A stretch of 62,905 nucleotides of DNA, the filler included. It is 5 parts of 5 records of this genome, joined end to end, with 100 filler letters (N's around TTAATTAATTAA, not from the genome) between each part and the next. Parts side by side here need not be neighbours in the genome. Positions count along the whole stretch, not along the records: positions 1 to 25,983 come from SRR15195285_749; 4 more parts are not named here. One strand, 5' to 3'. Position 1 is the stretch's first letter; each line of letters opens with the position of its first letter. Of this stretch, positions 2-29,000 are shown in pieces. The position numbers and the translations under genes are program-made. Under the pieces are notes generated by a model. It worked only from the letters and a program-made list of their open reading frames with translations. It did no database searches and had not been told where the DNA came from.

Positions 2-3000
2 AAAGCTGGAATAGAAAAGTCTAAACAAGACTTAATAGATCAGAATAATGAAATAGTAGAGCAAAGAGTTAACTTAGCCACAAATAACTTAAATAAGCAA
101 GGTGGAGAGTTGTTACAGCAGTCTATGAAAAGGCAGGAGGAATTAAGAAATCAAGCAGAAGCCTTAGATAACAATAACAGTATACCTGACGATCAAAAAG
201 CTGCAATATTAAATGCGCTAGAGGCAGAGTTTGATCAAATAGAAGCTGGAGCAGATAAATTCAAACAAGCTTTTACAAATACGTTTGGTTTATTATCTAA
301 TAAAGAACAGAGTAGATTAAAAACAGAAGCTGAAAGACTATTAAAGGTTGATGGAAATCAAAATATTTCTGGTGATAAAATAGCTAGAAAAGCAGAGCAA
401 CTACACACGAAGGAAAAGCTAGAACAAACTTTACAGTCAGATCAGTCTACGCTCAAAGCATTAGCTGGAGCTGGTATTGAAGTTGGTTATAGCGTTGAAG
501 ATACTAACGCGGGTGCTATAAAGTCTTTTACTGCGATGATGAATTTTAGAGCTGCAGATGAAAACAATAGTATAACACAAGAGCAAGCAGACTCTTTAAT
601 CGAAGAGTTTACTGATGGTATTAACGATGGAACATTAAATGGATTTAACGTTCCTTCTACAAATACGAAAACAGGTAAAAAAGTATACGACTCTATAACA
701 TCGGTTCAAAACTCAATAGCTAATGAAAGAAGCCAAACAAGTCTACATGAACTTGGACATGTTATAACAACTGAAGCTTTGGGATCAGATCCTGCTGCTT
801 TTGAAGAAACAAAAAACCTTATACTTTCTTATTTAGAAAAAGCTAACCCAGAAGCTTATACAAGAATAACAACTAGAACTAGAGGTCAAAGCGCTGATGA
901 AGTTTTAATGGTGTTTTTTGAAGAGGTTGCTGATAATAAAATAAAATTAGACAAAGCAAAAGGCACTGGGTTCTTAGGCTATCTTGGTTCAATGCTTGGA
1001 ACAGCTGCTTCAAAAGCTTCTAACACAGATTACAACTACAACTTCAAAGGCGAGACTGATATAGTTAACTTCGCTAAAGAGTTAGGTAGAAAACTTAAAG
1101 ATGGAACTTTAACAGTTGAAGACGTTGAGACTATACAGCAAGAAGGTTTAGGTGGTAAAAAAGAAGTACCTGTTATTCCTTTAGACGAAGTTGTTGTGAC
1201 TGGGGCAGCTGCTAGTAAATCTAGTAGAGAGGTTGAAACGCAAGAGCAAATAACTCCTGAGCAAAAAACAAAAAACAAACAACTAGTACAAAAAATTGTT
1301 GACGGTGATTTTTCGGCTATAAACACTCTTGTTCAAGACAATGCTGGTTTAATTCTTGGACCAAAAGTTTTAGGTTTTAATCAAGACATATCTAAGAATA
1401 GCGGTGTAATGTCTGAAGACCTGTTGAATGTAGTGCAAGATATACTAACACCTGGTTTAGCTAATCTGGTTATGCCTGGTAGATATAGAGATGCTGGAGA
1501 CACAAACAGAACAGGACCTATAAGTTTAGCTCATGAATATAACGTAAAGAAAGGTGAAGTTAGTACTTTTCTAGGTTTGCTGGGACTAAGAAAAGCGGAT
1601 ATATACACAGCGGCAGGACTTGATCCTAATAAATTTAATTTAGTTGCTATTGATTCTTCTACTAAACAAATAGTAGACGAAGGATCAGACACTAAAAAAC
1701 CTAAGCCAGAAAAAGAGGTATCTACTATTCAGATAGATCCAAGAGAGTTTGGACCTGTTACCGAAGGTAATAAACTCAAGGATGTAGAAAGTATAGTTGA
1801 AGTAACTGACAAAGAAAGATTAACATTCAAAAAACTAGCTTCTAAATACTTTGATAAAGTTTCACAAGCGTTGTTTGGTATGCCTGGCAAAAAAGTAAAA
1901 GGTAATGCTAGTTTAAAGTATGCTGATGTTAAGGGTCAACCTAGTTCTTCTGAAGCTAGTAAGCTTCAAAATGTTTTTAAAAATGTTGAAGACGTTAGAA
2001 ACTTTATAAAATCTATGCCGCCTTATAATGTTGCTACGAGTCAAACAGTAATAGATAGACAGGGTAAAAAAGTAGATGTTTCTAAAGATGTTAGAGGTAG
2101 ATCTATAGCTATAAATCCTACAATATTAAAAAAGTTTTATCAACCAGTTACTAGAGCTATAGAGGGTATATCAAACGAAAGTGGTAGAAGTTTAGGTAGT
2201 ACAAGTCAAACTCAAGTGTATGAATTAAGACCAGAATATAGAGGTAGAATACCAAAAACAACTATAGAAGCTTTACAAAAAAGTCTTGGCATTACTAAAG
2301 GAGAATTAAGCGTGCCAATTAAAGGGCCAGCTAGAACAGATTTTGGATCACTACTTACTGGACTATCTAAAATGTATGTAGACAATCTTATAAACACTGT
2401 AGGTAGATCTAAGCTTACTACGGATCAAGCTAAAGCAGATACTGGGGCTGGCAAGAATAAAGCTATGGCTAGTAGAGAAACACAGAAGCTAGACTGGAAA
2501 CAAACGGATGAAGCTTTAGTAGCTTCTTTTAAAGTAGGTAATAGAACTTATAAGACAACTTTAGAAGAAACCGCTTTTATGGAGTTTGACGAAGGTCAAA
2601 CCTACCGTGACATAGAAAATATAGCTAAAGATTTAGATATACTTGAAGATGCGGAAGGAGATCCAATCGAAAGTTCTGAGAACTTTTACCATTTAGAATT
2701 TGGAGATACTAAACTTGGAAAAGGTATAACAGGTGAAGGTAATGCCTTTGAAGTGTTTACCACTACCATGAACGGTGTTGTAGATTACTTAAAAGCTAAT
2801 CCAAAAATAGAAGGTGTTGTTTTCACAGCTAAAGAACCTAGCAGAATTAGATTATATAAAACTCTAAGTCAAGTTTTAGCTGGTAAACTAAATGGTAGCT
2901 ATGGTTTTAAAAACGACACATTTATCGTTTCAACTAAACCTGAAGCGACTAGCAAGCCAAAGTCAATGGCTAGTAGAGAGGTTAAAGCAGAAGACATTAG

Positions 3001-6000
3001 AACAGCTGCTGAAAAAAGTACTGGTAAAATAACTGGCTCAACTCTATCAAACTATAGTGTAAAACAGTTAGATGACTTAGGTTTTAAAACAGTAGCTGAT
3101 GTTAAAGAGTTTCTTAAGCTTCCTGTGTTACCAGCTAGGGAAATAAATGGAAAATTAAGAGCCGCTGATAAAGACGTACCTTTAAAGTCTGGTTACAAAA
3201 TGTTAGGTGGAAACCTAGATTTAATGACTGATGCTATAAAAGAGTTTTTGAATGAATTTCCACAGTATAGAGAGATTATAAGAAGATCTACGACTAACGG
3301 ACTTAGCAGATCAAGCATAGGCTCTCCCAAGGTGTTTGATAGGGTTATACCTAAAAGCGACAAGAAGTATGATATAATTTATAGAAATACATATAAGGCT
3401 AAAGATAGAAAATTATCTAAACCGTTTGTTAAAAAAACAAAAAGTAGTGGCTTTGTTTCAGCTCAATATGCAAAATTAGATTATCTAAAAAACTATTGGA
3501 TAGATATTCAAAGTTTTTTAAAAAAGAAACCTGAGTTATCTTTTTTATTCGAACAGATGTTAGATGATGCTCAAAACGATATGGGTAGTCTAATGAGAAT
3601 AAGTCCTCCCATACTATATCTACCGTTAAACAGTAAAGGCGAAATAGACTTTAACTCGGAGATAAGGGAAGAGCATAACATGCCTCAAAACAATGTAGGT
3701 AGCATGCTTTTAGATGCAGCTATAAACGGGAATGTTGAGCAGGTGTTTAAAGTTGTTTCAGCTACGTATATGCAAGGACCACTAACAATGGCTGATGACG
3801 ATAAAGTAAATATAAAGTACAGTAGATCTATGCCTGATTTTTTCTGGGATACTATGGTTCCTAGAATACTATCAGGTGACTTAAAGATACCAGAAGGAAC
3901 AGCTTCTTTAATAAGGTTAGTTGAGTCAGATATAAACCTAGATAACTATAATTTTTTACCAGAAAATAAAACTTTTTCAGAATACTTTTTTAGCACTAAT
4001 GGATTACCTACAAATATACAAAGCAAATTATTGAAGGATTTTTTTGCAGGTGATGCTACTTTAAAGCAGATTAGAAATCAAGGATTAGCTTATAATGAAT
4101 TAGCTCCTGGAATGGCTAGAGCTTCTAAGGAAAATAATAGCATACTACCTGAAGCTATAAAGTACGATAAAGATATTACTGTTCCTATGAGCATTGCTGC
4201 TTTAGAAAAAACCGATAAAGCTTTAGAACTTGCTAGAAAAATAGATCAACCTGTTAAGAAAATTAGAGTATTTGATTTTGACGATACATTGGCTAGAACT
4301 AAAAGCAACGTGCTATACACAATGCCTGATGGAATTACTGGAGCTATTGACGCTGCTACATTTGCTAAAGAAGCAGGTAACATGGAAGCTGAAGGAGCTC
4401 AATGGGATTTCTCTGAGTTTAGTAAAGTGATGCAAGGAAGTAAAGGACCATTATTAGATGTAGCTAAGATCATAGCGGACAAACGTGGAACTAAAGATGT
4501 ATTTGTTTTAACGGCAAGACCTGCAGATGCAGCTGGACCAATTAAAGAATTCTTAGCTAGTATGGGGTTGGATATTCCACTTGCTAATATTACTGGTTTA
4601 GGTGATGGAGCTCCACAGGCTAAAGCTGGTTGGATTATGGGTAAAGCAGCTGAAGGTTATAATGACTTTTATTTCGCGGACGATCACACTGGAAACGTTA
4701 GAGCAGTTAAAGATGTACTTAGTCAAATCGATGTTAAATCTAAAGTTCAATTAGCAAAAGCCAGTAAAGAGCAAACCTTTAATACTATTGTAAACGATAT
4801 GATCGAGGATTCGTCTGGTATTGAATCCTACAAAAAGTATTCTGCAGCAAGAGCTAAAACAGTCGGCGCTAGCAAGGGTAAATATGCTTTTCTTATTCCA
4901 CCATCTGCTGAAGACTTTACAGGTTTACTATATAAAATGATAGGTAAAGGTAAAAAAGGAGATGCTCAAATGGCTTTCCTAAAAACAAACTTACTCGATA
5001 CTTACAATAGAGCTGAATCAGCGGTTACACAAGCTAAGGTGTCTGCTGCAAATGATTTTGTAGCTTTAAAAACAAAACTAAAAACACTACCTAAAACTTT
5101 AAGTAAAGAAACTGGTATTGGTAAATTCACTTACTCTCATGCAGTACGTGTTGCCGCTTGGACCAAGCAAGGTATGGATATACCAGGTTTATCTAAAAGA
5201 GATGTCAAGGAATTGGTTGACTTTGTAAACAAAGACGCTAAGCTAAGAGTATTCACTGACGAGCTTATTAAAATACAAAAAGGCAAAGAATACCCAGCGC
5301 CCGGTAAAGACTGGTTAGGTGGAAATATCACCACAGATATTATTGGTGGTATTAACAAAGTTAACAGAGCTGAGTATCAGCAAGAGTGGAGAGAGAACAT
5401 CGATGTTATATTCTCTGAAGATAATATGAACAAGATGGAGGCTGCATATGGAACTAGATGGCGTGAAGCTATGGAAGATTCTATACGTAGAATGAAATCC
5501 GGTAGCAATAGACCAATTGGAGGTAACAGAGTAACAGAAGGATTACTTAACTGGTTAAACAACTCTGTTGGCGCTGTAATGTTCTTAAATACAAGATCTG
5601 CATTGTTACAGACTATATCTGCGGTAAACTTTATAAACTTGAGTGATAATAATATAGTGAAAGCTGGAGTGGCGTTTGCAAATCAAAAACAGTTTTGGAA
5701 AGATTTTATGACGCTTATGAATTCTGACTACTTAGTAGAACGTAGAAATGGTCTTAAGATTAACGTAAGTGAGTCTGAGATTGCTGACGCTGTAAGAGAA
5801 TCTAAGAACAAACCTAAAGCAGCTATTGCTTTCTTATTAAGTAAAGGTTTTGTGATGACTAGATTTGCAGATAGTTTTGCTATTGCATCTGGTGGTTCTA
5901 CATTTTATAGAAATAGAGTTAATAAGTATGTCAAAGAAGGTGTAGAGCAGAGCGTTGCTGAAAAGCAAGCGTTTGCAGATTTTAAAGCTATAGCGGAAAC

Positions 6001-6952
6001 AAGTCAACAGTCTAGTTCACCTAGCAAGATTAGCCAACAACAAGCGTCAGCAGCAGGTCGTGTAATACTTGCTTGGGCAAATACGCCGATGCAATATGCT
6101 CGTATACAAAAACGCGCAGCTCAAGATCTTATAAATGGTCGTGGAGACTGGAGAACTCACGTGTCTAATATAGTTTACTACGGTGCTATTCAGAATTTAA
6201 TATTTAACTCGCTGCAAAGCGCTGTGTTTGCTTTAGGATTTGGAGATGACGAAGAAGAAACTGACGAGGCTAAGTCTAAAAAGAAAGAAGAAAAAGCCTA
6301 CAAGATAGCTAATGGAATGATTGATTCTCAATTAAAAGGCTTAGGTGTATTTGGAGCTGCAAGTGTAGCTATGAAAAACACTTTAATGACTCTTTATAAA
6401 GAACATAACAAAAAAAGCCCTAAGTACGAAAACGCAGTAGCTGATTTACTTAGCTTTTCACCACCACTTGGATCTAAGATAGGTAAAATAACTGGAGGTC
6501 TTAGAAGTGCTAGCTGGAATAGAAAAGATATGAAAGAAAAAGGTTTTAGCTTAGATAACCCAGCTTATATGGCAGGTGCTCAAGTTGTAACTGGTCTTAC
6601 AAATGTTCCACTTGATAGAGTTATGAAGAAGATTAACAATGTAAGAGGTATTGTTAACGAAAGATCTGCTCTATGGCAGAAAGTAGCTCTAGGTCTTGGT
6701 TGGTCAACCTGGGATGTAGGTCTTGGATATTACGGAGGTTTTGATAAAGAAAAACCATTAACACCTAAGCAGCAATTAAAGCTAGAAGTTGATACAATGA
6801 AGAAAGATACTAGTAAGCCAGAACAAATTAAAACATTACTAGATTTTGGTTTAAATAAAAAGCAAATTAGAGAGCTTAAAAACGAAAACAATAGAGTTAA
6901 AAAAATATTAGAACTACAAAAAAAAGATAAAAATGCCGGATCCAAAAAATAA
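2..6952 (+). CDS. Giant multidomain virion/ejection-type protein, 5'-truncated: zincin HExxH domain, sigma-region-2-like module, HAD phosphatase domain, helical C-terminal region
   Basis: Frame is open from base 2, so the true start lies upstream of the window. HELGH at 746-760 with a downstream Glu. VFDFDDT..LTAR..K..FADD at ~4260-4690. Lies next to the lysis genes. Confidence 0.75.
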   Translation, partial: KAGIEKSKQDLIDQNNEIVEQRVNLATNNLNKQGGELLQQSMKRQEELRNQAEALDNNNSIPDDQKAAILNALEAEFDQIEAGADKFKQAFTNTFGLLSNKEQSRLKTEAERLLKVDGNQNISGDKIARKAEQLHTKEKLEQTLQSDQSTLKALAGAGIEVGYSVEDTNAGAIKSFTAMMNFRAADENNSITQEQADSLIEEFTDGINDGTLNGFNVPSTNTKTGKKVYDSITSVQNSIANERSQTSLHELGHVITTEALGSDPAAFEETKNLILSYLEKANPEAYTRITTRTRGQSADEVLMVFFEEVADNKIKLDKAKGTGFLGYLGSMLGTAASKASNTDYNYNFKGETDIVNFAKELGRKLKDGTLTVEDVETIQQEGLGGKKEVPVIPLDEVVVTGAAASKSSREVETQEQITPEQKTKNKQLVQKIVDGDFSAINTLVQDNAGLILGPKVLGFNQDISKNSGVMSEDLLNVVQDILTPGLANLVMPGRYRDAGDTNRTGPISLAHEYNVKKGEVSTFLGLLGLRKADIYTAAGLDPNKFNLVAIDSSTKQIVDEGSDTKKPKPEKEVSTIQIDPREFGPVTEGNKLKDVESIVEVTDKERLTFKKLASKYFDKVSQALFGMPGKKVKGNASLKYADVKGQPSSSEASKLQNVFKNVEDVRNFIKSMPPYNVATSQTVIDRQGKKVDVSKDVRGRSIAINPTILKKFYQPVTRAIEGISNESGRSLGSTSQTQVYELRPEYRGRIPKTTIEALQKSLGITKGELSVPIKGPARTDFGSLLTGLSKMYVDNLINTVGRSKLTTDQAKADTGAGKNKAMASRETQKLDWKQTDEALVASFKVGNRTYKTTLEETAFMEFDEGQTYRDIENIAKDLDILEDAEGDPIESSENFYHLEFGDTKLGKGITGEGNAFEVFTTTMNGVVDYLKANPKIEGVVFTAKEPSRIRLYKTLSQVLAGKLNGSYGFKNDTFIVSTKPEATSKPKSMASREVKAEDIRTAAEKSTGKITGSTLSNYSVKQLDDLGFKTVADVKEFLKLPVLPAREINGKLRAADKDVPLKSGYKMLGGNLDLMTDAIKEFLNEFPQYREIIRRSTTNGLSRSSIGSPKVFDRVIPKSDKKYDIIYRNTYKAKDRKLSKPFVKKTKSSGFVSAQYAKLDYLKNYWIDIQSFLKKKPELSFLFEQMLDDAQNDMGSLMRISPPILYLPLNSKGEIDFNSEIREEHNMPQNNVGSMLLDAAINGNVEQVFKVVSATYMQGPLTMADDDKVNIKYSRSMPDFFWDTMVPRILSGDLKIPEGTASLIRLVESDINLDNYNFLPENKTFSEYFFSTNGLPTNIQSKLLKDFFAGDATLKQIRNQGLAYNELAPGMARASKENNSILPEAIKYDKDITVPMSIAALEKTDKALELARKIDQPVKKIRVFDFDDTLARTKSNVLYTMPDGITGAIDAATFAKEAGNMEAEGAQWDFSEFSKVMQGSKGPLLDVAKIIADKRGTKDVFVLTARPADAAGPIKEFLASMGLDIPLANITGLGDGAPQAKAGWIMGKAAEGYNDFYFADDHTGNVRAVKDVLSQIDVKSKVQLAKASKEQTFNTIVNDMIEDSSGIESYKKYSAARAKTVGASKGKYAFLIPPSAEDFTGLLYKMIGKGKKGDAQMAFLKTNLLDTYNRAESAVTQAKVSAANDFVALKTKLKTLPKTLSKETGIGKFTYSHAVRVAAWTKQGMDIPGLSKRDVKELVDFVNKDAKLRVFTDELIKIQKGKEYPAPGKDWLGGNITTDIIGGINKVNRAEYQQEWRENIDVIFSEDNMNKMEAAYGTRWREAMEDSIRRMKSGSNRPIGGNRVTEGLLNWLNNSVGAVMFLNTRSALLQTISAVNFINLSDNNIVKAGVAFANQKQFWKDFMTLMNSDYLVERRNGLKINVSESEIADAVRESKNKPKAAIAFLLSKGFVMTRFADSFAIASGGSTFYRNRVNKYVKEGVEQSVAEKQAFADFKAIAETSQQSSSPSKISQQQASAAGRVILAWANTPMQYARIQKRAAQDLINGRGDWRTHVSNIVYYGAIQNLIFNSLQSAVFALGFGDDEEETDEAKSKKKEEKAYKIANGMIDSQLKGLGVFGAASVAMKNTLMTLYKEHNKKSPKYENAVADLLSFSPPLGSKIGKITGGLRSASWNRKDMKEKGFSLDNPAYMAGAQVVTGLTNVPLDRVMKKINNVRGIVNERSALWQKVALGLGWSTWDVGLGYYGGFDKEKPLTPKQQLKLEVDTMKKDTSKPEQIKTLLDFGLNKKQIRELKNENNRVKKILELQKKDKNAGSKK

Positions 6953-7367: not shown

Positions 7368-7523
7368 ATGAGTCTATCAGACATTAAATTATACGCTATG
7401 AACGCTGGAGCATTAGGCGTAACAACGTTTACACGAATCGAAGACGGTTTAAAAATATTTCTATTACTAGTGACTATAGGTTATACTATATCTAAGTGGA
7501 TCGAACTAAAAAAAAATAAATAA
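7368..7523 (+). CDS. Small membrane protein, holin candidate (51 aa; not in ORF track)
   Basis: MSLSDIKLYAMNAGALGVTTFTRIEDGLKIFLLLVTIGYTISKWIELKKNK; hydrophobic helices and basic tail; TAATG-coupled to the next gene; near the amidase. Confidence 0.55.
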   Translation: MSLSDIKLYAMNAGALGVTTFTRIEDGLKIFLLLVTIGYTISKWIELKKNK

Positions 7524-7777
7524 TGGGTATATATAATGACATGATGTTCCCGAATTCTCCTTTGAATAGAGAAAAACCACACACAGCGGGAATGAGTGCG
7601 GCTGAAAGAGCTGCTTACAATAAGAAGACAGGTGGAAACTTAAAAGCTCCACAACCAGAAGGTGGATCACGTAAGGAATCTTATTGCGCTAGGTCTGCAG
7701 GTATTAAGAAATGTAAAGATCCAGACAAAAATGGAGACTGTCCAAACGACATCGCGAGAAGAAACTGGAAATGTTAA
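7523..7777 (+). CDS. Small basic phage protein, DUF6321-like
   Basis: GGNLKAP...RKESYCARSAG...ARRNWKC matches my recollection of the R-x-S-[FY]-CAR...W-x-C family. Confidence 0.55.
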   Translation: MGIYNDMMFPNSPLNREKPHTAGMSAAERAAYNKKTGGNLKAPQPEGGSRKESYCARSAGIKKCKDPDKNGDCPNDIARRNWKC

Positions 7778-7800: not shown

Positions 7801-8280
7801 ATGAATACACCTTTTAACAAGAGTTTTTGTGGTAAATCTCCACTAAACGAATTAACAGCTAAACAGGAAGCTAATCTACCTGAAGCTTTAAAGACAGCTA
7901 TTGAAGCTAAGTCTCCAACAAATTATGGATCTCCGTTAGAGCAAAATTCTTTTGGCAAATCTAAACCATCTATAGTAAGCGAGAGATCACAAGCTAATAG
8001 GTATTTTGATTCAATTGTTAAGTTGCCGGGTATGAAAGAAGATTACGATGCGCATGTAAAAAGAAAAATAGAAGGGTATGAAGGAGACTATGGGTTTATT
8101 GCCCCACAACCAGGTGCAATTGTAACACCACAAAGACATGCTGTTAGTGTTGAAATTGCAAAAGGTGGTAAGTCTGGAGTTGCAGGTTTAAAGGCCATTC
8201 AAAGCGATGAATACAAGGAAAACTATAAAGAAACTTTAGGTGGAGAAAAAGCCCCGCGTAACACAAAGAGCACAAATTAA
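7801..8280 (+). CDS. Hypothetical virion-associated protein with SP[FL]-type repeats
   Basis: 159-aa ORF with TPF, KSPL, KSPT and GSPL motifs. Confidence 0.6.
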   Translation: MNTPFNKSFCGKSPLNELTAKQEANLPEALKTAIEAKSPTNYGSPLEQNSFGKSKPSIVSERSQANRYFDSIVKLPGMKEDYDAHVKRKIEGYEGDYGFIAPQPGAIVTPQRHAVSVEIAKGGKSGVAGLKAIQSDEYKENYKETLGGEKAPRNTKSTN

Positions 8281-8705
8281 TGCGTGAGATCAACAAGATC
8301 ATAGTTCATTGCACGGCTACGCCTGAAGGTAGGCATACTACCGTAGAGGACGTTAGACGATGGCATTTAGATCGAGGTTGGTCTGATATCGGATATCATT
8401 TTTTAATATATCTAGATGGCTCTCTGCACGAGGGGAGACCTGTTGAAAAGCAAGGAGCTCATTGCAAAGGTCATAATAAAGGATCTATTGGAATAGCTTA
8501 TGTTGGTGGGATTGATAAGGTTAATTTTAAACCTAAAGATACTAGAACTGAAGAGCAGAAAGAAGCTTTGGTATATATACTAGAGTATTTGAAGATACAA
8601 CACGCAGATGCGGTTGTACATGGACACAGGGACTTTGCTAATAAAGCTTGTCCTAGTTTTAATGCTACAGAAGAATACGATAACATAACTAACATGTGGA
8701 AATAA
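8280..8705 (+). CDS. N-acetylmuramoyl-L-alanine amidase (endolysin, T7-lysozyme/Amidase_2 type)
   Basis: IIVHCTAT, WSDIGYH, GAHCKGHN, GHRDF..KACPSF zinc-amidase motifs. Confidence 0.93.
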   Translation: MREINKIIVHCTATPEGRHTTVEDVRRWHLDRGWSDIGYHFLIYLDGSLHEGRPVEKQGAHCKGHNKGSIGIAYVGGIDKVNFKPKDTRTEEQKEALVYILEYLKIQHADAVVHGHRDFANKACPSFNATEEYDNITNMWK

Positions 8706-18593: not shown

Positions 18594-19349
18594 TTACAAT
18601 ATATCAAGCACTTGCGAGTGATCTACATTGTCAATTAATTTCTGTACCGCTTGCTTTTTAAGCTCAGATACACGTACATAAGAGCTAACACCGTTTATGT
18701 TTAAGATGCTAGCAATTTCTTTAGCTGAGTGTTTATCACAGTCTAAACCGTAACTTAGTCTCAACACTTCGTATTCGTTACCAGTTAAATGTTTTTGCAT
18801 TAAACTTTTTAAATACACATTCATTAACTGTATATTATATGGCTCAGATTTATCTTCAACCTGATGCATCATGTTCTCGTCGTCGTCATTTAATACTTGA
18901 GCGTCTATACTCAAGAACACACTATTAAAGAACATAGCAACCATAGCTTTGTCTTGAGGGTTTTTACGTATCTCATTTAGTTTGTGTTCTGGTATACGTA
19001 TATCACCTCGTTGCATATCAATTCTACGCCTGATGTTACCTTTTATACGTTTACTAAAAAATGATTTTAAAGTTTTCTCAACGTCTTCAGATTCATTTAA
19101 CATTTCCCAGTCAAGTTTATTTACAGCTTTTATTAAACCTTCGTTACCTATTTGCAACAAATCATTGATACTTAAAACACCTGATGCTTGCTGCGTAGTT
19201 GAAAACTTGCGTGCTAGGTTTTCTACAAGAGGCATAAACCTTATTATGAGCTCGTCTCTAGTATATTCATGATAACTATAAACAGGAGGCATAGATCTCT
19301 TTATGTCTTCTTTATATCTCACGTAGTTTTGTACATTATATTTCTTCAT
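18594..19349 (-). CDS. Phage sigma-70-family RNA polymerase sigma factor
   Basis: Region 2 (LVENLARKF..DLLQIGNEGLIKAV), IRIP, region 4 (E.EVLRLSYGL...KEIA..L...RVSELKKQA). Confidence 0.9.
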   Translation of the reverse strand: MKKYNVQNYVRYKEDIKRSMPPVYSYHEYTRDELIIRFMPLVENLARKFSTTQQASGVLSINDLLQIGNEGLIKAVNKLDWEMLNESEDVEKTLKSFFSKRIKGNIRRRIDMQRGDIRIPEHKLNEIRKNPQDKAMVAMFFNSVFLSIDAQVLNDDDENMMHQVEDKSEPYNIQLMNVYLKSLMQKHLTGNEYEVLRLSYGLDCDKHSAKEIASILNINGVSSYVRVSELKKQAVQKLIDNVDHSQVLDIL

Positions 19350-25983: not shown

Positions 25984-26083
25984 NNNNNNNNNNNNNNNNN
26001 NNNNNNNNNNNNNNNNNNNNNNNNNNNTTAATTAATTAANNNNNNNNNNNNNNNNNNNNNNNNNNNNNNNNNNNNNNNNNNNN
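25984..26083. other. Artificial contig-joining spacer
   Basis: N44-TTAATTAATTAA-N44; base composition changes abruptly across it. Confidence 0.98.
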
Positions 26084-29000
26084 AGCCGGAGCCGGAGCCG
26101 GAGCCGGAGCTGCCAGCATCCCAGCTGGTGCGGTCGCCGTCGATGCAGCCTCCCCCGCTTCACAGCCTTCGGCAGAAGAGGGCGCCGCCTGCACTTCCTC
26201 TGTCGAAACGCGCGGCGTTCCGTGGCACACAGCAGTCTGCACGGGCCGAGCCACTTGGGACTCTGCGGGCAACTGTTCACAAAGCCACCAATCTACTAGC
26301 GATGGACAGTCGGACAGGAGATCAAGTAGGGTCCTCAGATCCGTTTGTGCGGCTCGTGATGTCTGCGCGTGCAAATGGAACTCAAATTCATGAAACCTCG
26401 GTTGTCAGCACGTCGCTCAATCCGATCTGGACAGCAGACAACGTGTTTGAGTTTCACGTTGAAGACGAAAAGGATGTGCTCTTTGCACATGTGATTGATG
26501 CCGACCCAGACGAGGATACGGATGACCACCTGGGGCAGGCAATGGTACGGGTAGGGGACTACGTAGACGGTGTGGAGGTCGGGCAGCGTGCATTCAAACT
26601 CACCCCATGTACTGACCACGAAGGCGCCAACGCAGGCGCGAGGCCAGTGCAGATAGCAACAAACCAGGAATCCGCGAGTGTTACGCAGGGCGAGCTGTTC
26701 TTGAGCTTTGTATATGTACCGGCCGGTGCACACCCGAAGCACCCGTTAGGCTGGGCAGAAGTGCAGGTGCAGCGTGCTTCCAATTTGAAAGGAGTTGATC
26801 GAAGCGGACTTAGCGATCCGTTTGTGGAAGTGATTGTTGACCAGTTCGGGCCGGTAGAAAGCGGCCACACCACATGCTTGCCGCAGACGCTCGACCCAGA
26901 GTGGTCGGATCCAGAGAGTGGCTTTGTCAAGTTGGAGGTTCGCTCCTCGACTGCGCAGCTCGTTCTCCGCTGTTGTGACAAAGATCGCTTGCTGGGAAGA
27001 ACACTGAAGAGCACTTTCCTCGGCGAGGCAGCGCTGGATCTCACCAAGCTGATCGAGTCTGCTGGGTCTTCCAGTGGTGAACAGACACTGCCGTTGGGTC
27101 CACAAGAGTTTGTCTCTATCCATTCCCGATTCCCGCCTGCAAGCCCTTCGACACCGGTCCAAGGCGACGTGACTGTTTCGGTTACGTTTGTACCGTGGAT
27201 ACCTCCACCTCCGCCACTCGGGGAGTTGTCGGTCAAAGTTGTGATGGCAGAAGAGTTGCGAGCTGCTGACTTGACCAGCAAGAATGACACATACGTTGAG
27301 TTGGTACTTGATCAAGCAAAAGGGAGCAACACGGTGCAGTACAAGCGCCATAGAACACCGACGGTCTCCAACAGCAACGCGCCCGTGTGGGACAGTACAA
27401 GCGAGTTTATGCTGCGAGTGCGAGACGCAGACGCCGTACTCTTCGCGCACTGCTTTGATGAGGACTGGGACTCGGCAGACGACTATCTCGGGGAGGCAAG
27501 TGTCTCAGTCAGCAAGTTCATGAGCTCCCCGAACGTACCGGTGCTGGTCAAACTGCCACTAGGAGAACGCACAGAGGGGTTGCCGGACGATGGTGGAGGC
27601 TCCAGAACGTTGTGCTGCGGCCTTGGTGCATCTCCCGAAGCTCGTGGCATTTTGACACTGAGCTGTCAATTTTTTCCAAACAATGCCGGGCTGGAAAAGG
27701 AAAATGTATCATTATCTAAGATAAAAGCATCAGCAGATGATGACTGGGAACATGTCGGCACGAAATCCAACACGACGCTTCTCTTTGGCTGTGCATCCGT
27801 GTGGTTTGTTGGTGCCGTGGTGTTGGCCGTCCTGCTTTTGGTTGGTGTCGTGGTCACCAAAAGCATGCTAGTCGCTGGCTGCATGGATGAAAGAGCTGTC
27901 AATTTCGATCCGGATGCGTCGAATAGTCGAGCATCAGCGTGTGTATACGTTTGGTGCGACAGTAGCGAAGACTGCAACACCCCCCGCGGCACATGTGTGT
28001 CTGGAACTTGTCGGTGCGAGCTGGGCTTCACTGGCGAGATTTGCAATGAGATCGAGCAGCTTTTTGCGCCTCGTGTCGACGGATCTCTCGAGTTACGAGG
28101 TGGTGCTAGCCCTGCTGACATTCAGCAAGCTATCGCGTCTGTCCAAGATGGCGTATCAGTTGACGATGTCGTCATAGATAGCTTCTCTCAGAATATCACT
28201 GGCATCTTGGTTGTTCCCGGTGTTTCGTACGGCATGTGGACAGATGATTCTGCACAAAGTGAACTACGGGATGCGATTGGTGCGTCTGCTGGTGTCTCTG
28301 CAGACGAAGTCACTTTCGCCAGTGTCGAACCTGTGGCAGCTGGCCGTCGTCTGCAACAAACACCCAGGACTGCGCTTACATATCTCATCTCGTCATCAAA
28401 TGATATCAGCAAAGTTCTTGGCAACGAGACTCGTTTCACCCAAAGGCTCAAACAGGAAGCAGCTCGAGCTTGCGCACTGTGCAGTGCCTTTTTGACAGCA
28501 GAAGTTTCATCGCAAGTCGTTGACGTGGTCTCTGCAGTCGTATACCACGTGGCACCTAAGTTTGCGGACTCAGCGCAAGCGTCAGCATTTGGGCAGGTCC
28601 TTCTTGACTCTCTTGGCAACCCAGACAACCTTGTGGCTGCCGCACAAAGGGGCGGGCTCTCCGTGATCTCGAGTGTAGTTGCGGAAGACTTCAGTATTGC
28701 GGAAGCATTCTCCCGTGTTGTAGACGGCCTTTGGCAGCAGTTTGTGGATCTATTCCAGCGCATGAGACCGACATTGTTGCGAAGCTCACAAACAATACAG
28801 TTTGGTGGCTGGGCTGTTGAGGTTGCGACAGCCTTCACCAGTGACTCTCCAATCACAGCACGAGTCTTAGGTGCGATTACGCTGGGTGACCTGATGTCAG
28901 ATGTGCGCTTGCCAGAAGGCCTGGCTGGAGTCATAGACCCTGTACGTGCCACAATGCTGCGCAACGTCACGGTGGTGGTCAACACGGAGCCTTTTGCTGC

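Follow-up and report, generated by a model that had tools for sequence, protein, structure and literature searches.

A lineage-specific linker peptide at the module joints of a giant, probably crAss-like phage protein, and a zincin-like domain that may cut it

We consider a giant open reading frame (ORF) at the start of a phage contig, at 2..6952 of a stretch of 62,905 nucleotides (nt) of DNA (the window, along which positions are counted), and the short linker peptides that divide its protein into modules. The joints between these modules are conserved sites, and their last residue, which we denote Z, is set lineage by lineage at the level of the protein. Judging from sequence, we propose that this is a cargo or "polyvalent" protein of the crAss-like kind and that its own zincin-like domain would cut the linkers, a reading that we regard as about evenly balanced between right and wrong; that the linkers are cut by a protease of one kind or another seems to us fairly probable. 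Self-cleavage is the best available reading, and it is built on association.

The contig (1-25984, with a GC content of about 0.35) is phage DNA with 37 ORFs (8073 amino acids, aa). A spacer of N's around ttaattaattaa at 25985-26084 follows it, and the DNA past the spacer (26085-62905, GC content about 0.55, range 0.52-0.62) is unrelated to the phage contig. The giant ORF lacks its N-terminus because the contig ends there: a single BLAST alignment of the ORF 2..6952 protein with the relative P0002 (3042 aa), of 2331 columns and at 87% identity, puts the missing N-terminal part at about 735 residues. A phage collection of 50,697 records gives no match by megablast or tblastn with the region or its protein, and the relatives that we examine are 21 related loci from IMG/VR, whose longest ORFs have 1592-3146 residues and of which L016-L018 are cut by a contig end, together with the near-complete genomes G002 (66 kb, 100% complete) and G001 (62 kb, 96% complete).

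The first-pass annotation of this DNA had described a phage polyprotein with five linkers of the form [AS]S[RK]E. All five are present (Table 1), and the positions reported for them are those of the tetrapeptide cores. Five copies in the giant protein compare with a mean of 0.26 and a maximum of 3 in 300 shuffles of its residues, and 5/5 matches among the 37 ORFs of the contig fall in the giant ORF. With the relatives' form of the motif, [AS]S[KR]R, both matches in G002 (93 ORFs) lie inside the giant protein, and of the two in G001 one falls in another ORF, of 268 aa, at the contig end. A full-text literature search, under the terms used, found no published description of this linker.

The conservation of the linker in homologues, which had also been expected, holds for the positions and for the first part of the peptide and fails for the exact motif, of which each relative has 0 or 1 copy. 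The general joint peptide in the relatives reads K-x-[AM]-[AFE]-S-[KR]-Z. At site A it takes the form GK[NS][KT][AS]MAS[KR] with R, L, G or E as the next residue, and the aligned joints of the relatives read AGK[NS][KT][AS]MASK-R, KP[KR]SMASK-R, PGK[AS]MASK-R, VQLAKASK-R and AK[EA]SK-K, with variants that end in SK-L or SK-I (L010 and L012), in S[KR]-G (L011), in K (L020), and in KFSK-S or KFSK-T (L003 and L009).

We split the giant protein at the five linkers into the segments S0-S5 and compare each of them with the 21 loci. The six segments spread independently among these loci, and the BLAST matches end at the linkers: residues 1-166/167 of the query for S2 (L013, L016, L017), 1-212/213 for S4, 2-415/416 for S1 (L013), 5-383/384 for S3 (L011) and 1-409/410 for S0 (L015, L021). 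The ends of pairwise homology cluster at the linkers in the ORF 2..6952 protein and in L013, L001, L011, L012, L021 and L004, and some clusters lie within segments, for example inside S3. Module exchange, together with low model confidence at linkers 1 and 2, supports the earlier placement of the linkers at domain boundaries, and the check that had been suggested for it, the alignment of homologues, finds modules that vary among relatives at linker positions that stay.

The segments differ in how widely they occur (Table 1). S0 is found in 3 loci (L015 and L021 at 75% identity, L019 weakly) and S1 by BLAST in 2, a shorter homologue of about 340 aa occupying the equal position in other loci; S3 (384 aa) has strong matches in 3 loci and weak ones in 5. 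The compact module of about 165 aa that linkers 2 and 3 were said to bracket is indeed there, as the exchange cassette S2, whose neighbours and whose preceding linker's last residue differ between loci. The three loci of the 21 that lack S5 have ORFs that end at a contig end.

We turn our attention to the residue Z. It is R in most lineages, L or I in L010 and L012, G in L011, K in L020, and E in the ORF 2..6952 protein, L015 and L021; over 121 proteins the types R, K, E, L/I, G, S, T and A are found. From joint to joint of one protein Z agrees, its class being shared by sites A and D in 75/75 proteins (identical residues in 62, with 43.1 expected from the marginals), at sites C and D in 68/73 and at sites A and C in 63/65, counts that are not independent events because the proteins are related to one another, and that are made with patterns that miss the FSK-type site A. 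The linker before the mobile S2 follows its own protein: it is ASRE in the ORF 2..6952 protein, FSLE in L021, FSLK in L020 and ASKR in L013, L016 and L017, and it agrees with site D of the same protein (site D being absent in the truncated L016 and L017). When the ORF 2..6952 protein is compared with L001, S5 is 95.6% and S4 92% identical, yet Z is E in the former and R in the latter at both flanking sites.

The codons of the linker residues show at what level this agreement is kept. The invariant serine has the codon AGT or AGC in every listed locus at sites B and D and in every one but L011 (TCT) at site A, and a TCN codon at site C; for arginine, site D uses AGA or AGG and site C uses CGT or CGC; the glycines of L011 are GGG, GGA and GGT, and the glutamates of ORF 2..6952 are GAG and GAA. 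The linker residues are drawn from different codon families, and selection is therefore on the protein and not on a DNA repeat.

A candidate for the cutting enzyme lies in the same chain, upstream of the modules. The first-pass annotation had given the protein a zincin of its own on account of an HExxH motif, which is confirmed as HELGH; this motif and a later glutamate are invariant in the aligned relatives (Table 1), and that part of the claim stands, the zincin fold being the part that is unconfirmed by Foldseek, VIA-wide and Pfam. The domain is zincin-like by motif only. In a model of the region with a mean predicted local distance difference test (pLDDT) score of 57.1, HExxH is predicted to lie in a helix (98-122) with two strands before it, and Glu300 in a later helix (160-172). 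The family is large: a profile of the zincin-like region finds 1151 clusters (at 50% identity) at E ≤ 0.001, and 5126 proteins match the C-terminal 939 residues at E ≤ 1e-10 (among 8000 candidates scored).

For 122 proteins, we take the pairwise similarity of seven regions as a predictor of shared Z at site D. The area under the curve (AUC) is 0.844 for the zincin-like region, 0.817 for the last 350 residues of S5, 0.745 for S1, 0.734 for the first 300 residues, 0.705 for S4, 0.695 for the first 350 residues of S5 and 0.641 for the part before the zincin-like region; this comparison favours the zincin-like region as the best of the seven, by a modest margin. Z is shared by 96% of the protein pairs (n=112) that are <80% identical in S5 and at least 70% in the zincin-like region, and by 45% of those (n=1143) that are at least 90% identical in S5 and <50% in the zincin-like region.

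Within this region, the column of Arg243, adjoining the catalytic helix, shows charge complementarity with Z. Over 99 distinct regions it holds Asp in 47/51 where Z is R or K, Arg in 6/6 where Z is E, Arg in 6/6 where Z is L or I, and Val, Gly, Thr or Arg where Z is small; it is only a lead because it was picked from the 14 columns with the highest mutual information. A further test covers 148 proteins (from the best 150 of the 1151 clusters), of which 142 have HExxH in the matched region: four proteins with ANER have E-type linkers, many Asp-bearing ones have R- or K-type linkers, and the majority of the distant members lack a recognisable linker of this type.

A number of observations weigh against cutting by this domain, and we gather them here. 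The model of the region gives no Foldseek match at E ≤ 0.001, and its best Z-score in the VIA-wide search is 5.5, on helical fragments, with 0 peptidases in 50 rows, the model being too poor for such fold searches to decide. Pfam, searched with 19 members at E ≤ 5, gives no metallopeptidase except ATLF in 1/19 (E 0.15). The lead in AUC is small (0.844 vs 0.817), and the pair counts are inflated by shared ancestry. The choice of the Arg243 column from 14 likewise lessens its force; at least two of the more distant proteins, P0138 and P0208, have Asp in it and linkers that end in P, V, L or Q, and a strict count could score 6/142 proteins, with 4 Asp/basic Z, 1 Arg/acidic Z and 1 Val/basic Z. 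P0007 has mixed Z (K, E, R, R, E), which goes with the incoming downstream modules, and it looks like a recent recombinant.

The motif itself is also missing from part of the family. HExxH is absent from 2/21 ORFs of the related loci, those of L011 (5264-14233) and L018 (6632-11407), and the profile of the zincin-like region has no match in 24/138 distinct proteins, 6 of those being <2000 residues long. The subgroup of L011 and L018 (including P0055, P0070 and P0100) has AIAP[IL]EE[IL]FH instead, in 14/14 members, all of them among those 24 proteins, with the first His changed to Glu; EEV with the invariant Glu is kept in 13 and EEI is found in P0072, and the identity between the two subtypes is about 40%. 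This subgroup retains the linkers, with Z only G, S or A in the 13 that have site D, and this too counts against the zincin-like domain as the cutter. EExxH may be a variant metal site that functions and is specific for small residues; the alternative is that the linkers do not depend on the domain. A complex prediction of the zincin-like core with 41 residues around linker 2 scored 0.00 twice, with alignments unused, and is evidence neither way. Short proteins that match the zincin profile were considered as stand-alone modules and rejected, as they appear to be contig-end fragments.

We next consider the place of the giant gene in the phage genome. The phage contig begins inside the giant gene, and the context upstream is known from the relatives. 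In G002, the order is the large terminase, the portal, a 392-aa protein, the likely capsid protein, several virion structural proteins by PHROG, a 1479-aa protein, a 489-aa protein, two short proteins (241 and 252 aa), the giant gene and small genes. The 489-aa protein matches the crAss muzzle's C-terminal domain (PF25729, 37.9 bits with a cut-off of 27), and the order from muzzle to giant gene recurs in L008, L013, L015, L019 and L021; the giant gene is the last of the structural block in the relatives. Flavobacterium elemoviruses and phages of Cellulophaga, Maribacter and Tenacibaculum have portals with 42-50% identity to that of G002, and an elemovirus has a 3694-aa gene in the position of the giant gene, annotated as a structural protein. 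From the muzzle context, the portal similarity and this structural counterpart, we judge it most likely that the giant protein is kept in the capsid, as cargo or for ejection, by an uncultured podovirus that has a crAss-like tail and marine Flavobacteriia as hosts, its packaging being suggested by gene position and annotation.

Combining the joints, the zincin-like region and the cargo assignment, we develop the following picture. The giant protein would consist of three parts: an N-terminal carrier that ends in the zincin-like domain, an exchangeable train of modules (S1-S4) and the conserved C-terminal S5. The joints would serve as substrates for the zincin-like domain of the same chain. It would cut at or beside Z, inside the capsid or following ejection, and the cutting would free the individual modules. 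Packaging, the cutting of the linkers, the bond that is cut and the zincin-like domain as the cutter are the steps that we infer.

Could the linkers instead remain uncut? They might be docking or hinge peptides that bind, for example, a repeated capsid, portal or tail-barrel protein, a partner that co-varies with Z. In crAss001, short cargo segments are described as bound at the portal, tail barrel and muzzle, and extrusion in a partly unfolded state is proposed (PMC10172136); the N4 virion RNA polymerase gp50, which has an HExxH domain, is reported as packaged unprocessed (PMC5512222), a precedent that also speaks against self-cleavage in the present case. In our models, moreover, the linkers lie in low-confidence, probably flexible stretches. 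A hinge alone, however, needs neither an invariant Ser-Lys/Arg nor a lineage-wide Z, no candidate partner is identified, and Z tracks a region inside the giant protein better than it tracks the neighbouring modules. We therefore consider docking or hinging unlikely.

Distinctly unlikely, in our judgement, is that the linkers are cut by another protease, either an unrecognised one encoded by the phage or one of the host after ejection, with the HExxH domain in some other role, for example on host proteins. This is what the unconfirmed zincin fold would allow, and the EExxH subgroup keeps its linkers, its G-type proteins having Z = G at sites A and D in 4/4 and at sites C and D in 4/4. The association of Z with the zincin-like region is inseparable from linkage to other upstream genes, and the S-x-E ending of the ORF 2..6952 linkers fits the A-x-E rule described for the SPN3US protease gp245 (PMC10052503). 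A search for such a protease with Peptidase_S78, ClpP and S49 finds 0/3 related records with any of them (two of the records at least 96% complete), the controls working; in the S77 search the control was silent. The structural region of G002 likewise contains no protease in PHROG (22 proteins) and Pfam (17 proteins) scans. Prohead proteases, furthermore, usually cut several head proteins, and the linker motif is absent from the portal, capsid and other structural proteins of G002. A host protease would hardly explain E, R/K, L/I and G versions in close phages with about 95% identical S5.

An improbable alternative is that the linkers act mainly at the DNA level, as shared junctions for in-frame swaps and deletions, with the agreement of Z brought about by gene conversion. 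Module exchange does occur at the linkers, P0007 resembles a recent recombinant with Z travelling with its incoming modules, and three of the ORF 2..6952 linkers share AGT AGA GA, linkers 2 and 3 sharing ATG GCT AGT AGA GA. The core is merely about 12-15 nt, however, and the linker residues fall in different codon families from site to site (Ser in AGY or TCN, Arg in AGA or CGT, Gly in three codons). Such a role is in any case compatible with cleavage, and the linkers, three of them sharing 8-14 nt, may help in-frame exchange. That the conserved Met of K-x-M-A-S-K marks internal translation starts giving nested shorter proteins is very improbable: sites A, B and C carry ATG after A-rich sequence, but there is no Met at sites 0 and D nor at site C of the FS[KR]S forms (AKESK, AKASK and AKFSK in the listed loci), and the residues that are kept are Ser, Lys/Arg and Z, the last of which internal starts leave unexplained.

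Returning to cleavage by the protein's own zincin-like domain, we also put forward an extended form of it, which is doubtful at present, of matched pairs of protease and site. The pocket would be re-set through the residue that lies six to eight positions ahead of HExxH (Asp, Arg or a small one), together with all linkers of the chain, which would change to R/K, E, L/I or small residues, EExxH serving for small Z. The cutting in each lineage would thereby be confined to that lineage's own cargo chain, and the freed sigma-region-2-like factor of S1 would take the place of the crassvirus virion RNA polymerase. Should the pairs be real, they would be a source of orthogonal protease/site pairs from a family that is very large and found in abundant marine phages; if the linkers are uncut, they still show plainly how a short linear motif can evolve in step at several places of one protein. 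Exact candidate sites, natural variants (E, R/K, L/I, G and S/T/A) in otherwise near-identical chains and a candidate specificity residue are all at hand, and the idea of self-processing is therefore directly testable with few constructs.

What would be released is considered next. The whole giant protein has no Pfam family at E ≤ 0.1, and S0, S1, S2, S3 and S5 have no meaningful match in sequence and profile searches of the PDB. Structure predictions for each segment had been suggested; those made, for the zincin-like region and for S1, are both poor. S1 was aligned with its shorter forms, which are 22-25% identical to the ORF 2..6952 protein in a 12-row alignment with 41 invariant columns; in the 16-row alignment used for the model, nine shorter rows are 22-26% identical and 38 columns are invariant. 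The S1 model has a mean pLDDT of 54.6, with about 70-83 over residues 21-100. Sigma factors aligned over region 2 dominate the weak Foldseek rows of this low-confidence model, and in a second look with VIA at Foldseek's 186 chains they are the first 37 of the 46 rows listed, with superpositions at Z-scores of 3.2-5.9, over 75-105 residues and with root-mean-square deviations of 3-10.6 Å.

From this model, we tentatively suggest that S1 may contain a sigma-region-2-like part. The sigma-like module that had been placed after linker 1 thus keeps the support of weak fold rows (Z-score ≤5.9) and finds none in the sigma families of Pfam (scanned with 16 S1 sequences, E ≤ 5), in a comparison of the S1 profile with the PDB, or in an hhalign comparison with the separate sigma-like gene of the same phage (probability 0.2, no similarity). 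An RNA polymerase family does not appear in general Pfam and PHROG scans of the giant protein, which included no search aimed at RNA polymerase.

The HAD module reported between linkers 4 and 5 is borne out: four HAD motifs of S4 are invariant in 12 sequences (D48, D50 and T52; T127; K164; D183 and D184), and phrog_415 (polynucleotide kinase) matches at E 5.7e-05 over aa 1416-1589. The PDB profile matches of S4 are weak (phosphoserine phosphatase, E about 0.2), and there is no Pfam HAD match. This module is 25-50 residues longer in L015, L019, L020 and L021. S3 has no PDB or Pfam relative, and its invariant columns include Glu-Glu-His within EIREEHN as well as Asp and Arg residues; from this sequence pattern it could be an undescribed enzyme. 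The "cocktail of host-takeover enzymes" once predicted for this protein is reduced to one recognisable enzyme, the HAD phosphatase; S2, S3 and S5 have no recognisable known relatives. A membrane segment was considered for S5 and dropped, since a hydropathy scan gives 0 stretches of 19 residues above 1.4 in the ORF 2..6952 protein; the N-terminus of P0002 has one. The giant proteins of some relatives contain Pfam kinase-type domains (PF06414, PF13671, PF07931) or LysM (PF01476), among them P0014, P0030, P0047, P0049, P0051, P0099-P0104 and P0111; P0004, P0019 and P0057.

The features of the contig are collected in Table 1. The minus-strand block encodes ribonucleotide reductase, thymidylate synthase, a primase-helicase, an Erf-type annealing protein, the sigma-like gene and DNA ligase. 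Downstream of the giant gene and adjoining it, an 84-aa ORF (7523-7774) matches the C-terminal ends of seven PHROG families of unknown function, best phrog_10346 (E 1.5e-14), and is apparently a small protein that equals a widespread C-terminal domain. GroEL- and GroES-like chaperonins are encoded by relatives (G002, at L031:4940-6490 and L030:18319-18720, MT497017.1 and MW202828.1), in a region to which the phage contig does not extend. Beyond the spacer, 26085-62905 holds long ORFs with eukaryote-type domains, including one of 2953 aa with three C2 domains, one for a thioredoxin-ubiquitin-PUB protein and one of 1891 aa that is alpha-2-macroglobulin-like.

Table 1. Positions, in the window, of the giant ORF, its linkers, segments and candidate functional residues, and of other genes of the phage contig
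Feature	Position	Strand	Residues and remarks
Giant ORF	2..6952	+	2316 codons and stop; open at first bases
S0	2..1231	+	aa 1-410; last part of the N-terminal carrier, with the zincin-like region in it
Zincin-like region, as aligned and modelled	416..1270	+	aa 139-423
Arg243, candidate specificity residue (lead only)	728..730	+	six residues before the first His
HELGH	746..760	+	aa 249-253; His249, Glu250, His253; invariant in 19/19 aligned relatives
Glu300, candidate third metal ligand	899..901	+	invariant in 19/19; 47 residues past His253
Linker 1, core SSRE	1220..1231	+	aa 407-410; pLDDT <50 in both models
S1	1232..2479	+	aa 411-826
Possible sigma-region-2-like part of S1	1250..1636	+	aa ~417-545; weak model superposition, Z-score 4.0-5.9
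Linker 2, core ASRE, site A	2468..2479	+	aa 823-826; pLDDT <50
S2	2480..2980	+	aa 827-993; 167-aa cassette in 7/21 loci
Linker 3, core ASRE, site B	2969..2980	+	aa 990-993
S3	2981..4132	+	aa 994-1377
Linker 4, core ASKE, site C	4121..4132	+	aa 1374-1377; Ser is TCT, TCN in 13 listed relatives
S4, HAD-type phosphatase module	4133..4771	+	aa 1378-1590; in 19/21 loci
HAD motif I, DFDDT	4274..4288	+	Asp1425 to Thr1429
Linker 5, core ASKE, site D	4760..4771	+	aa 1587-1590; conserved context VQLAK-x-SK-Z
S5	4772..6949	+	aa 1591-2316; C-terminal module in 18/21 loci
Amidase endolysin	8280-8705		before the minus-strand block, after small genes downstream of the giant ORF
Separate sigma-factor-like gene	18597-19349	-	phrog_351, E 4.5e-21; within the replication block

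Finally, we compare the giant protein with known systems. In RNA virus polyproteins, one chain carries a protease of its own, and a short site recurs at each junction. There is no sequence relation to them here; the modules of the giant protein are accessory and exchangeable, and cutting is in this case proposed. The giant proteins of two cultured relatives, the Flavobacterium phage vB_FspP_elemoA_7-9A (3694 aa) and MW202828.1 (3859 aa), have an equal gene position and one or two HExxH motifs, with weak local similarity to L015 and L019 only; the portals of both records fall within the 42-50% identity to the G002 portal given above. They contain no recurrent junction peptide, which is a further point against self-cleavage, at a threshold that recovers the linker in L013 and misses it in the ORF 2..6952 protein, whose linkers are less alike.

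The N4 virion RNA polymerase gp50 is likewise a giant ejected protein with an HExxH subdomain of unknown role, as described in PMC13434306; it differs in having no repeated linkers and in being built around an RNA polymerase. For SPN3US, the account of gp245 (PMC10052503) has a short Glu-ending motif, A-x-E, that marks the cuts in head proteins, and S-[KR]-E would fit it. There, however, a separate protease acts on many head proteins, mostly to remove N-terminal propeptides (PMC10052503), whereas the present motif is confined to one protein and in the relatives ends in R, K, L, G, S, T or A. The cargo proteins gp45-gp50 of crAss001 (PMC10172136) are alike in their position after a muzzle-type gene, at the end of the structural block, and in including a very large protein presumed to be stored in the capsid and ejected; neither "cleavage" nor "protease" occurs as a word in that paper, and proteolysis of the cargo is not described there. 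Crassviruses also differ in genome size (about 100 kb, as compared with about 62-66 kb here), and in the giant protein the general Pfam and PHROG scans recognise no RNA polymerase module.

The closest likeness is in design, to the polyvalent proteins that Iyer and colleagues defined in 2017, proposing that their domains are set free by autoproteolysis, either in the head or once injected (PMC5512222). These are, as described there, likewise giant and multidomain, with a domain of HExxH and Glu, unrelated enzyme modules and mosaic exchange, and the predicted strands before the HExxH helix and Glu on a later helix agree with the domain description in that paper. The domain considered here is assigned to no Pfam metallopeptidase family. 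The case made in PMC5512222 for processing is one of precedent and domain-based inference with no defined sites: its main text gives no site motif and has the word "linker" 0 times, whereas the joints described here carry a defined peptide. What is new relative to the published idea of self-processing is this defined joint peptide with a lineage-specific last residue.

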